Source: Arcobacteraceae bacterium (lineage in GTDB: Bacteria > Campylobacterota > Campylobacteria > Campylobacterales > Arcobacteraceae). Taken from it: 64,000 nucleotides of DNA. The stretch is taken from the NCBI GenBank assembly GCA_963662945.1, contig OY759974.1, positions 2,336,001 through 2,400,000 of the forward strand, written 5' to 3'. Below the pieces are notes generated by a model. It did no database searches. It saw only the letters and a list, made by a program, of their open reading frames with translations, and had not been told where the DNA came from. Positions within the stretch are counted from its first letter, which is position 1. Every line of letters begins with the position of its first letter. Position numbers and translations under genes: made by a program. Below, in pieces: positions 8,320 through 20,560 of this stretch.

Positions 8320-8390
8320 GATTGCAATTTGTTAAGTATTTTAACTTTCGTTTGAATTTGTGGTATAGTTCTAAAAAATAGGATTATAAA

Positions 8391-9428
8391 TTGGAAAGAT
8401 TAGTAGAGTTAGAAAAAATGACATTTGAAGATACTAGTGATGAAGTAACACTTCGTCCTAGTGTTTGGGATGATTATATTGGACAAGAAAAAATCAAAAA
8501 AAACTTACAGGTATTTATTCAAGCTTGTAAAAAAAGAGATGAAGTTTTAGATCATATTTTACTTTTTGGCCCTCCAGGTCTTGGGAAAACAACTCTTAGT
8601 CATATCATTGCTAATCAGATGGAATCAAATATGAAAGTGACAGCAGCACCAACTATAGAAAAAGGTGGAGACTTAGCTGCTATTCTTACAAATCTAGAAG
8701 AGGGTGATATTCTTTTTATAGATGAAATACATAGGTTAACACCAGCAATTGAAGAGATTTTATATCCAGCTATGGAGGATTTTCGTTTAGATATTATTAT
8801 AGGTTCTGGGCCTGCTGCACAAACAGTGCAGATTGATTTACCAAAATTTACACTTATAGGGGCGACTACAAGAGCAGGAATGTTAAGTAATCCTTTGAGA
8901 GATAGATTTGGAATGCATTTTAGATTAAACTTTTATAATGATGTTGAACTCTCAAAAATAGTTTCAATTGCTGCAAGTAAACTTAAAAAAGAAACTCAAA
9001 AAGAAGCAAGTTTAGAGATTGCAAGAAGAAGTAGGGGAACTCCTAGGGTAGCATTAAGACTATTAAAAAGGGTGAGAGATTTTGCAGATGTAGAAGACGA
9101 AGATACAATTGAATTACATAGATGTAAATATGCTCTTGACGAATTAGGAATTAATGATAAAGGTTTTGATGAAATGGATTTAAAACTTTTAGAGTTACTT
9201 TTATCAAATAAAGGAAAGCCAATGGGATTAAGTACTATGGCGGCTGCTTTAAGTGAAGATGAAGGAACTATAGAAGAAGCAATTGAGCCATATTTACTGG
9301 CAAATGGTTATATACAAAGAACAGCAAGAGGAAGAGTTGCAACTGTAAAAAGTTATGAGTTATTTAGATTAACGCCTCCAAAAGATGCTGAAAATATGTC
9401 TCTTTTTGAGATTGGGGATTGGGAATGA
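8391..9428 (+). CDS. ruvB: Holliday junction branch-migration helicase RuvB
   Basis: [42 protein letters not shown] start. Confidence 0.98.
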
Positions 9429-19399: not shown

Positions 19400-19533
19400 A
19401 AATGTTCTCCATTTTATTTTAGTAACCAAATTGTAATTACTAAAAATTAAAATTTCAACATTTTATATTAATATTGCTTTAGTAAATATTTAATGCCATA
19501 AGAATGGCATTTTATTTTTAAAATTAATCAATT

Positions 19534-19608
19534 TTATAGGATTATTTCACACAATTTATAAATAAATATATCAACTTTATCACTTATATTTTTCAAGTTT
19601 TTTTTCAT
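19534..19608 (-). CDS. Small ORF, 24 aa (MKKNLKNISDKVDIFIYKLCEIIL), divergent from the CI/LexA-like repressor
   Basis: Strong SD ACAGGAG 5 nt before the ATG; hairpin at 19492-19511 just downstream; below the ORF-track cutoff. Confidence 0.55.
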   Translation of the reverse strand: MKKNLKNISDKVDIFIYKLCEIIL

Positions 19609-19696
19609 AAATGCTCCTGTTTGTAATTTAAATATTCGAAATAATTACATAAAAAAATAAAATATTTTAAAAAAATTGCATTTTGCAATTAAAAAT

Positions 19697-19725
19697 TTGA
19701 CATTTATTGCAAATGTATGTATAAT
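19697..19725 (+). promoter_or_regulatory. Consensus sigma70 promoter of the repressor gene, containing a palindrome
   Basis: TTGACA (19697-19702), 17-nt spacer, TATAAT (19720-19725); ACATTT-ATTGC-AAATGT inverted repeat at 19700-19716. Confidence 0.8.
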
Positions 19726-19745
19726 TAGAAAAAAAGAGGTGTAAA

Positions 19746-20402
19746 GTGTTAAATATTAATGAAATCATTGAAAAATTACGAGATGTGCTTTCTAGTGAAA
19801 AAAAATCTGGAAAAGTTTTTGATAAAGATATTGCAAATGCGTTAGATTTAACAAGTGTTAATTTTGCAACTATGAAAAAAAGAAATAGTGTACCATTTTC
19901 AAATATACTTGATTTTTGTGCTTTAAAAAAAATATCAATTAATTGGCTATTATATGGACAAGATCCAAGTAGTCTAGTTGATAGTACAGACAGATATTGG
20001 ATAAAATATTTTCCAACAGTAAGTGTAAGTGCAGGAGGTGGGGCATTTGAGGGAGAAGATGATTTTGAAAAATTGGATTTACCAGATTTTTTTGTAAATA
20101 TTATTGGTGGTGAAGACAATTTAAAAAATATAGAAGCTATAAATGTTACAGGAGATAGTATGGAACCAACATTAAATAATGGTAACATTATATTTATTGA
20201 TAGAACGAAAAATGATACTGCTAAAGATGGAATATATGCTTTTGTGAATGAAAATGGATTATTTGTAAAACGAATTCAAAAAAGAATTGATGGTTCATTA
20301 GATATTATATCTGATAATAAGGAGTATCCAATGCAAATAGCAAATAAAAATGACATAACCATTTTAGGTAAAGTTGTAAGTTCTATAGGTAAAGTATTTT
20401 AA
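19746..20402 (+). CDS. CI/LexA-like repressor (phage CI-type HTH plus S24 autopeptidase)
   Basis: HTH-like DKDIANALDLTSVNFATMKKRNSVPF...ISINWLLYG; Ala-Gly cleavage site VSAGGG; catalytic Ser in GDSMEP and Lys in FVKRI. Confidence 0.92.
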   Translation: MLNINEIIEKLRDVLSSEKKSGKVFDKDIANALDLTSVNFATMKKRNSVPFSNILDFCALKKISINWLLYGQDPSSLVDSTDRYWIKYFPTVSVSAGGGAFEGEDDFEKLDLPDFFVNIIGGEDNLKNIEAINVTGDSMEPTLNNGNIIFIDRTKNDTAKDGIYAFVNENGLFVKRIQKRIDGSLDIISDNKEYPMQIANKNDITILGKVVSSIGKVF

Positions 20403-20497
20403 ATTTAATATGAATTTCGATTAAGTTTAATTTCAGTATTATTGTCAATATATTTTGCTATAATATTCAAAATTTAATTTTAGAATGGAGTATTTGC

Positions 20498-20560
20498 TTG
20501 GACAGTCATTCCCCCTTGTGGTTAGTTTGTGAAAGAAAAGGTTATTTATGGAATATTTAA
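20498..20560 (+). other. Candidate leader peptide (uORF) MDSHSPLWLVCERKGYLWNI overlapping the CNNM gene start
   Basis: GGAG SD at 20487-20490, TTG start at 20498, stop at 20558-20560; out of frame with and overlapping the ATG at 20548. Confidence 0.35.

Follow-up and report, generated by a model that had tools for sequence, protein, structure and literature searches.

A CI-type S24 repressor as a probable functional stand-in for LexA in Arcobacteraceae, with a predicted operator and SOS-like regulon

Background

That a phage-type S24 repressor can sit in LexA's place is known in print for Bacteroidetes and Francisella. The non-canonical LexA of Bacteroidetes, a phylum without canonical LexA, is an S24 peptidase with a CI-type N-terminal domain that acts through a palindrome specific to the lineage and governs a regulon of SOS type (Sanchez-Osuna et al. 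2021, PMC8565304). FddR of Francisella is a co-opted phage-type S24 repressor with a tiny network that does not include recA, a GTG-N11-CAC motif, and a distribution confined to one genus (Perez-Varela et al. 2026, PMC13148647). UmuDAb of Acinetobacter is a further S24 protein in LexA's place (PMC11332147). Statements on these and the other cited papers refer to the excerpts of them available to us. Here we describe a comparable candidate from an Arcobacteraceae bacterium: the regulator gene rep and its product, Rep, which lie in a 64,000-nucleotide stretch of DNA (the window; positions 2,336,001 to 2,400,000 of contig OY759974.1, assembly GCA_963662945.1, forward strand). The source genome is a single contig of 2,497,315 bases, rated 99.99% complete. 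A first-pass annotation, made from the window sequence alone, had proposed that this gene encodes a domesticated, autoregulated, RecA-cleavable repressor. We consider it likely that Rep serves Arcobacteraceae as a functional stand-in for LexA.

Rep resembles the Bacteroidetes LexA in being a CI-type S24 protein of a LexA-less lineage, with a palindrome of its own and a regulon of SOS type, which for Rep is predicted. It belongs to another phylum and has another motif, and the two are set apart here by the published description rather than by sequence relatedness. Compared with the Bacteroidetes regulon as described, the predicted Rep regulon adds dprA, comM, radA, and radC and is without uvrA; its operators are fixed upstream of the core promoter, and rep has a conserved divergent micropeptide. 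In contrast to the tiny network and GTG-N11-CAC motif described for FddR, the sites of Rep stand at recA and about a dozen further operons and follow an ATTGCA-N3-TGCAAT motif. Rep is also family-wide, with orthologs in other families of the Campylobacterales. UmuDAb and Rep are both S24 proteins in LexA's place, the former derived from UmuD and the latter a CI-type repressor.

Textbooks cite Campylobacter and Helicobacter as bacteria that have neither LexA nor an SOS response, and their phylum, the Campylobacterota, is often treated likewise. A literature search, whose coverage left out most subscription journals and supplementary files, found no publication on this regulator or its motif in Campylobacterota. 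The excerpts of the Bacteroidetes and Francisella papers (PMC8565304, PMC13148647) contain no mention of Campylobacter, Helicobacter, Arcobacter, or Epsilonproteobacteria. In Campylobacter lari, the most heat-induced gene encodes an S24 protein, Cla_0805, and the excerpted paper asks whether the species has an SOS response (PMC7118207). What is new here is the lineage, the operator, a predicted regulon with transformation genes, a fixed promoter geometry, and a micropeptide partner. These provide a concrete regulator, with a defined predicted operator and regulon, for a whole family of Campylobacterota that includes cultivable species, and make damage-inducible repair, mutagenesis, and recombination in the phylum directly testable. 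With Rep, a phage-type S24 repressor would have taken LexA's role independently once more, in addition to the cases of Bacteroidetes and Francisella. The questions it raises concern the rigid distance between operator and −10 element, the presence of transformation genes in the regulon, and the role of the micropeptide.

Results and discussion

The gene under study is as follows.

19746 to 20402, + strand: rep, an open reading frame of 218 amino acids (aa) with a GTG start, encoding a CI-type N-terminal domain, a linker, and an S24 domain.

In rep orthologs, ATG stands at the position of the GTG start (upstream-region alignment). With Pfam, residues 93–211 of Rep matched Peptidase_S24 (PF00717) at 70.4 bits against a cut-off of 23.3, while the match to Phage_CI_repr (PF07022) was marginal, at 21.5 bits against a cut-off of 22. 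The latter match is precomputed for some Rep orthologs and for 66% of Rep's Atlas cluster, and PHROG 4, 'transcriptional repressor', matched Rep with an E-value of 1.3e-40. An alignment of 21 orthologs (38–84% identical), later enlarged to 24, showed three invariant blocks: S95-A96-G97..G99, G136-D-S138-M-E-P, and K175-R176. These hold a candidate scissile bond, Ala96-Gly97, in the linker and a Ser138/Lys175 dyad in the S24 domain, the distance from bond to Ser agreeing with the roughly 35–45 residues of self-cleaving S24 peptidases. The single Rep sequence matched nothing in the PDB (phmmer), and a profile of the 21 orthologs was needed; it matched solved LexA and UmuD' structures (E 1e-4 to 4e-3) and placed S138 and K175 of Rep on S119 and K156 of E. 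coli LexA. In the AlphaFold model (predicted local distance difference test, pLDDT, 83.7), the N-terminal domain is helical and the C-terminal domain is rich in beta structure. Phage 186 CI and a lambda-186 hybrid ranked first among the Foldseek matches to the model, before LexA and lambda CI; the CI entries among these are 7jvt, 2fjr, and 3bdn. Because of the invariant residues, the PDB profile, the Foldseek matches, and PHROG 4, we call Rep a CI-type, not LexA-type, S24 repressor; its self-cleavage residues are intact, and cleavage is predicted. The first-pass annotation had described a CI-like helix-turn-helix (HTH) domain joined to an intact S24 domain with an Ala-Gly site and a Ser/Lys dyad, and the S24 half of that description holds; the CI-like half is supported by the Foldseek and PHROG matches, with a Pfam match just under its cut-off.

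The possibility that Rep simply is a LexA was rejected on the family test: TIGR00498 (LexA) reached 20.9 bits against a cut-off of 110.95 and covered residues 132–214 only. The NCBIfam matches to Rep are partial and C-terminal only, and Pfam found no LexA_DNA_bind winged helix in it. No LexA was found in the genome, where the best TIGR00498 match, at 20.5 bits far under the cut-off, is Rep itself. Rep is also the sole S24 match above the Pfam cut-off in the genome, a second match being weak (17 bits, E 0.007). Current database labels for proteins of this type are 'S24 family peptidase' or an automatic 'SOS-response transcriptional repressor LexA'. With canonical LexA (E. coli, Thermotoga; PDB 1jhf, 3k2z), Rep shares the C-terminal S24 fold, the Ser/Lys dyad, the Ala-Gly site, and a predicted control of its own gene and of recA, ruvB, and dinB (DinB-like here). 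It differs in having no winged-helix LexA DNA-binding domain, in failing TIGR00498, and in its operator sequence. With lambda CI and phage 186 CI, Rep shares the two-domain architecture, the best structural matches, and divergent promoters that share operators, but it is encoded by a chromosomal core gene with no adjoining phage genes. Phage 186 CI is not known to be self-cleaving, whereas Rep keeps the Ser/Lys dyad.

The intergenic region upstream of rep holds three elements on which the operator assignment turns.

19675 to 19689, no strand assigned: predicted operator O1, ATTGCATTTTGCAAT, common to the rep promoter and the promoter of a divergent peptide gene.
19697 to 19725, + strand: rep promoter, TTGACA-17-TATAAT (12/12 matches), with the −35 element TTGACA at 19697–19702 and the −10 element TATAAT at 19720–19725.
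19700 to 19716, no strand assigned: second palindrome, ACATTT-N5-AAATGT, with arms at 19700–19705 and 19711–19716 that are 100% complementary; it overlaps ATTGCAAATGTATGT (19706–19720).

The perfect promoter had been pointed out in the first-pass annotation and was recovered as described, as were two palindromes. Both are present, the AATTGCA/TGCAATT arms around O1 (19674–19680 and 19684–19690) being 100% complementary as well. The emphasis placed on the second palindrome has to be corrected: ATTGCA-N3-TGCAAT is kept in nearly all same-genus rep promoters and in L026 and L027 from other genera, whereas the consensus −35 and ACATTT-N5-AAATGT occur in the closest relatives only (L004–L007, L025). 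The operator predicted from these comparisons is the upstream palindrome, not ACATTT-N5-AAATGT. Compared with the operator of other genera, ATTGCAAATGTATGT has one half-site intact and the other shifted by one base. Those genera have an operator inside the core promoter, between −35 and −10, and ATTGCAAATGTATGT is probably a degenerate remnant of it, a homology suggested by a by-eye comparison with their TTGAAA..ATTGCAAATTGTAAT..TATAAT promoters.

Exact ATTGCA-N3-TGCAAT occurs four times in the genome, against 0.5 copies expected from ten simulated third-order Markov genomes. All four copies are intergenic. One is in the rep promoter, and the others lie 68 nucleotides (nt) before recA, 41 nt before the gene of a 603-aa UvrD/RecB-like helicase, and 60 nt before a strain-specific 255-aa gene (L034, G000:C1:85393-86160) that matches no family and is without relatives in 40 related genomes. 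The hybrid form ATTGCA-W3-TGTTAA has exactly three genome copies, again all intergenic: before ruvB, 64 nt before radA, and 70 nt before a gene for a DinB-like Y-family polymerase. The ruvB copy lies within the window.

8321 to 8335, no strand assigned: ruvB operator ATTGCAATTTGTTAA, 55 nt before ruvB (8391–9428, + strand) and 28 nt before a TATAGT hexamer.

The sequence ATTGCAATTTGT (8321–8332), which the first-pass annotation had noted as a weak resemblance upstream of ruvB, is part of this 15-bp site; the resemblance is real, and its conservation, given below, shows that it is not weak. Across the sites, the half-site variants ATGRCA, ATTACA, and TTAACA appear to be tolerated, with the inner CA/TG and the A/T spacer nearly invariant. 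A scoring matrix was built from 80 orthologous sites. Its 14 best matches in the genome, which is about 93% coding by crude gene calls, are all intergenic. Near-match operators lie 41 nt before dprA and 62 nt before comM (YifB family), a hybrid-form operator with a G in the spacer 40 nt before radC, and an operator 41 nt before a TIGR03916 radical-SAM 'DNA modification/repair' gene. Beside dprA, comM, and the TIGR03916 gene, the 14 best matches include the gene of a 168-aa protein that carries topoisomerase C-terminal repeats and several genes of mobile-element type (one integrase-adjacent, two ORF6N, one Bro-N, and one BrnT toxin gene). Together, these sites support an SOS-like predicted regulon of recA, ruvB, radA, radC, the UvrD-like helicase, the DinB-like polymerase, dprA, and comM, and so give substance to the wider regulon that had been suggested for the repressor.

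Conservation of the sites was followed among same-genus relatives, with the following results.

recA: 21 of 24 relatives with at most one mismatch, and one further locus cut inside the site; 80–84 nt before the start.
UvrD-like helicase gene: 16 of 21 with at most two mismatches, and three more with weaker variants at the same place; 53–56 nt before the start.
comM: 13 of 20; 74–79 nt before the start (100 nt in one).
ruvB: 17 of 21 with a matrix score of at least 10; 70–82 nt before the start.
radA: 12 of 21 with a score of at least 9, and seven weaker at the same place; 76–86 nt before the start.

Outside the genus, ten motif sites were observed in G030 against none for the control pattern, including those of recA, ruvB, radA, and an ExoIII-like gene, and six against one in G038, including recA, rep, a RecN-like gene, and a DEAD-box helicase gene. 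In five further genera of the family, ATTRCA-N3-TGYAAT lies 81–92 nt before recA, with C as the first base in G148. A predicted operator stands at rep's own promoter in every genus examined, in keeping with the autoregulation that the first-pass annotation had proposed. Two marks of an SOS regulator can be read from the sequence: an operator at the regulator's own promoter, and operators before repair and recombination genes that are conserved across species.

The sites also disappear together with rep. Two same-genus genomes, G021 and G003, have other genes at rep's syntenic place and no ortholog elsewhere; both are without the recA and helicase sites, and in addition G021 is without the radA site and G003 without the ruvB site. 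In genus g22, rep is absent from all four genomes, and recA, which directly follows another gene in each, is siteless in all four (best score at most −8.1). Two genomes without a rep match keep the recA site. In G002, the absence of rep is read as an assembly gap, because the CNNM gene that normally follows rep is at a contig edge and the recA site is kept; G065 is a 210-contig assembly. The joint loss of rep and operators is the strongest argument that Rep, and not another protein, reads the palindrome, and we infer that Rep would bind it. If the palindrome belonged instead to another transcription factor, such as a competence regulator, rep would be a mere target. The predicted regulon does contain the classical transformation DNA-processing set (recA, dprA, comM, radA, radC), as this alternative would have it. 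It is nonetheless hard to reconcile with a site at rep's own promoter in every genus examined, with sites that vanish with rep in genomes from at least two genera, and with a palindromic 15-mer that suits a dimeric HTH/S24 protein, and, with Rep as the one regulator considered, we hold it to be quite improbable.

The distribution of rep is that of a core gene. Orthologs were found in 20 of the 24 same-genus genomes, at 81–96% identity. Across the family, a survey of 154 genomes with a completeness of 90% or more gave orthologs in 146 of them, from 19 of 20 genera. Matches of 38–52% identity occurred in 8 of 16 sampled genomes from other Campylobacterales families, where orthologs of up to 55% identity are present overall (38–55%). 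By domain and gene calls alike, rep lies in the window between oadG (OAD_gamma; upstream, opposite strand) and a CNNM/CBS gene (downstream), with oadA, oadB, pckA, and rpoD beyond, as first annotated. There are no phage genes near rep in the window's gene neighbourhood, as there would be for the repressor of a resident prophage. CNNM directly follows rep in all 21 same-genus loci and oadG-oadA stands on the other side in 19 of them, the remaining two stopping at contig ends; the gene order around rep in G030, from another genus, is the same. Among 50,697 phage records, those closest to Rep are repressors of Campylobacter and Helicobacter phages, at 28–34% identity only. Given the family-wide presence, conserved synteny, and distant phage relatives, rep is a core gene that has been vertically kept. 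A phage origin is plausible but would be old.

Rep could also be a repressor left behind by a prophage or island, with control of nothing beyond its divergent partner and a few genes of mobile elements; the matches at repair genes would then be due to chance. The CI-like N-terminal domain and fold, the PHROG 4 match, and the Campylobacter and Helicobacter phage repressors as closest phage proteins are in line with such a past. Several high-scoring sites also precede ORF6N, Bro-N, integrase-adjacent, and toxin genes. The ORF6N (KilA-N-like), Bro-N, and BrnT genes preceded by operators are the following.

G000:C1:2434405-2434938 (L212), 450500-450800 (L214), 163103-163399 (L213), and 2107522-2107791 (L041): operators before the ORF6N, Bro-N, and BrnT genes, one of the two ORF6N genes being a 70-aa fragment.

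These antirepressor-like and toxin-antitoxin genes would apparently be under damage control. Against a leftover repressor stand the lack of phage genes around rep, the family-wide synteny, phage relatives no closer than 28–34% identity, and the position-conserved sites at recA, ruvB, radA, comM, and the helicase gene across species and genera. Synteny, family-wide presence, and the conservation of the recA, ruvB, and radA sites largely refute this explanation, to which we give very little credence.

Operators and promoters are arranged in a rigid way. When the best −10-like hexamer was picked regardless of its distance to the operator, the operator edge lay 28 nt before it in 61.4 of 99 weighted picks from the recA, helicase, comM, dprA, radA, and ruvB promoters. 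The promoter of the DinB-like gene has the same 28-nt spacing. At rep promoters within the genus, the distance is 29–30 nt (15.8 of 22), and in the source genome the rep −10 begins 30 nt after O1. A 28-nt spacing, combined with the usual 7 nt from −10 to the start, puts the operator centre near −48; transcript starts, and hence this position, would be as predicted from the sequence. As read from the sequences, no −35 can be recognised in the target promoters, and the −10 of many is of the extended TGn type. Such fixed placement sets the Rep regulon apart from LexA boxes, whose placement relative to the promoter is variable. In other genera, the rep operator lies between −35 TTGAAA and −10 TATAAT in five of five, and at L026 it abuts the ribosome-binding site. 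In the rep-less G021 and G003, the recA and helicase promoters retain a −10 without the operator.

Several points weigh against reading Rep as a LexA-like repressor of this regulon. At all targets but rep itself, the distance by which the operator precedes the core promoter is rigid, and a fixed position near −48 is seen more often with activators than with repressors. When one mismatch is permitted, the pattern shows no genome-wide excess (24 found, 23.6 expected), and the case therefore rests on the exact copies, their intergenic placement, and conservation. The matrix scan is partly circular, because its input sites were chosen by their match to the pattern. The dprA site, 55 nt before the start, is restricted to the four closest genomes. 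A scan of recA, uvrA, ruvAB, and error-prone polymerase genes had been suggested with the first-pass annotation; recA, ruvB, and the DinB-like polymerase gene carry sites, and uvrA has none (best matrix score −12.6). Finally, no site was seen before recA in six genomes with distant rep orthologs (G031, G040, G036, G029, G025, G027): upstream of recA, no palindrome of CA-W3-TG type was seen in G025, G029, G040, G036, and others, and no pattern match within three mismatches in G027 and G031.

The first of these points is the ground for an alternative in which Rep is an activator, or has a dual role as lambda CI does at PRM, recruiting polymerase from about −48 and repressing its own gene. In that case, the regulon would be shut down by cleavage or would answer to another signal. 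The 28-nt spacing, rigid across species at the recA, helicase, comM, dprA, radA, ruvB, and polymerase promoters, is what an activator would produce, as are promoters without a recognisable −35 and with a TGn extended −10 in many cases. An activator-run damage response has been published for Moraxellaceae (PMC12392091). An obligatory activator site should not be dispensable, however, yet it was lost in G021 and G003 while the recA and helicase promoters kept their −10. The site is also inside the rep core promoter in five genera, and turning off recA, ruvB, and a translesion polymerase after RecA activation would make little physiological sense. Overall, we judge activation improbable. Repression is favoured because of the in-promoter rep operator in five genera, its placement at L026, and the −10 elements kept in rep-less genomes. 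Our best guess is that Rep would block the upstream contacts of polymerase at these promoters, which lack a −35 and are flanked by A/T tracts.

For Rep as a LexA-like repressor, the following course of events is proposed. A dimer of the CI-type N-terminal domain would bind the 15-bp palindrome ATTGCA-N3-TGCAAT and hold down rep itself, the divergent peptide gene, recA, ruvB, radA, radC, and the genes of the UvrD/RecB-like helicase and the DinB-like Y-family polymerase, together with the TIGR03916 radical-SAM gene, dprA, comM, and the mobile-element-type genes (ORF6N, Bro-N, the integrase neighbour, BrnT). DNA damage, or another source of RecA-coated single-stranded DNA, would be the trigger. 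The S24 domain would then cut the Ala96-Gly97 bond by means of the Ser138/Lys175 dyad, with RecA triggering the cleavage. The DNA-binding domain would thereby lose its dimerisation domain, and the regulon, rep included, would be derepressed. That Rep works like LexA is well supported, with binding, cleavage, and induction predicted. As far as sequence analysis goes, the interpretation first put forward for this locus is supported, the correction being which palindrome matters.

A small gene on the other side of O1 appears to be part of the system.

19534 to 19608, − strand: micropeptide gene of 24 codons (19608–19537) with a stop at 19536–19534 and an AGGAG ribosome-binding site at 19615–19619.
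19641 to 19646, − strand: −10-like hexamer AATTAT of the micropeptide gene, predicted from the sequence, 28 nt from O1.
19430 to 19458, − strand: promoter-like site TTGAAA-17-TACAAT of the oad operon, inside a stretch nearly identical across the genus.

An open reading frame of 20–27 codons with a ribosome-binding site, starting 53–66 nt from the operator, is present at L026 and L027 and at each of the 21 same-genus loci whose upstream sequence is long enough. In other genera, a 31-codon frame lies at the same position in five of five (19 codons in G041), and these share the C-terminal motif ..K.D..(I/L)Y....IL with the micropeptide. In G117, the operator is again 28 nt from the −10 that faces the 31-codon frame. 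Compared by eye, the last eight codons of the L004 and L005 micropeptides show synonymous differences only. These comparisons support the micropeptide as a real conserved gene under the same predicted operator as rep, as anticipated for the divergent peptide in the first-pass annotation. Because the oad operon has a conserved promoter of its own, the peptide gene, and not oadG, is the divergent partner of rep. At 20–31 aa, the peptide is too short for a Cro-type HTH protein, in contrast to lambda and 186. Small genes accompany other regulators, yneA or sulA in the case of lexA and ddrR in that of umuDAb; UmuDAb is paired with the small, divergently encoded DdrR, which assists repression. By analogy, the micropeptide could inhibit division or modulate Rep or RecA. 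A complex prediction for the G117 Rep and the 31-aa divergent peptide scored 0.00, which gives no verdict either way.

A broader and more doubtful proposal would join these elements, with one CI-type regulator fusing the SOS response with competence DNA processing, acting near −48, and having the peptide as its effector. The SOS programme would comprise recA, ruvB, and the translesion polymerase, and the competence half would comprise dprA, comM, radA, and radC. RecA-coated single strand, from damage or from incoming DNA, would turn both programmes on. Rep would touch or block the upstream contacts of polymerase at promoters without a −35 and would not cover the core promoter. The ancestral 20–31-aa partner would be the effector, either a division inhibitor or a modulator of RecA or Rep. 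We regard this combination as unlikely in its entirety.

Other observations

Further features were noted around rep. The region between the peptide gene and the oad promoter contains the following hairpin.

19492 to 19511, no strand assigned: G+C-poor hairpin, scored terminator-like on the + strand.

This hairpin may terminate transcription of the peptide gene. A stretch of about 70 nt ahead of oadG (window 19430–19500, − strand; likewise in L005–L014) is almost identical between species, with diverged flanks, and may hold a site through which the oxaloacetate decarboxylase operon is regulated. No Rfam family matches the rep-oad intergenic region, including the hairpin and the stretch before oadG. 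On the other side of rep, no terminator was predicted in the gap before CNNM (window 20403–20547), which contains a TTGTCA..TATAAT-like promoter; co-transcription of rep and CNNM is possible.

Elsewhere in the source genome, about 950 nt upstream of the strain-specific gene L034 are without any gene by the crude caller. Two of the three best operator matches lie in one cluster (G000:C1:545682-550094; L037, L038) with a tyrosine integrase, which also holds unknown genes and the 168-aa topoisomerase-repeat protein. The cluster may be an island, or what is left of a prophage, that makes use of the host's regulator.

Three observations concern other genomes. The rep copy of G005 is 75% identical and has four in-frame stops, and on its contigs C57 and C90 rep, ruvB, and radA each carry several in-frame stops, of all three kinds, with lower identity; the stops point either to many errors in the contigs or to decay of the genes. 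A second repressor copy of 38–47% identity is present in some genomes of the family (G011:C1:686354, G074:C1:1184236, G055:C1:1392005, and others) and may be prophage-borne. In G035 (C190:20812-22671), the recA match falls in two pieces about 1 kb apart within one open frame of more than 1100 aa, and this split within a single frame suggests an intein or another in-frame insertion.

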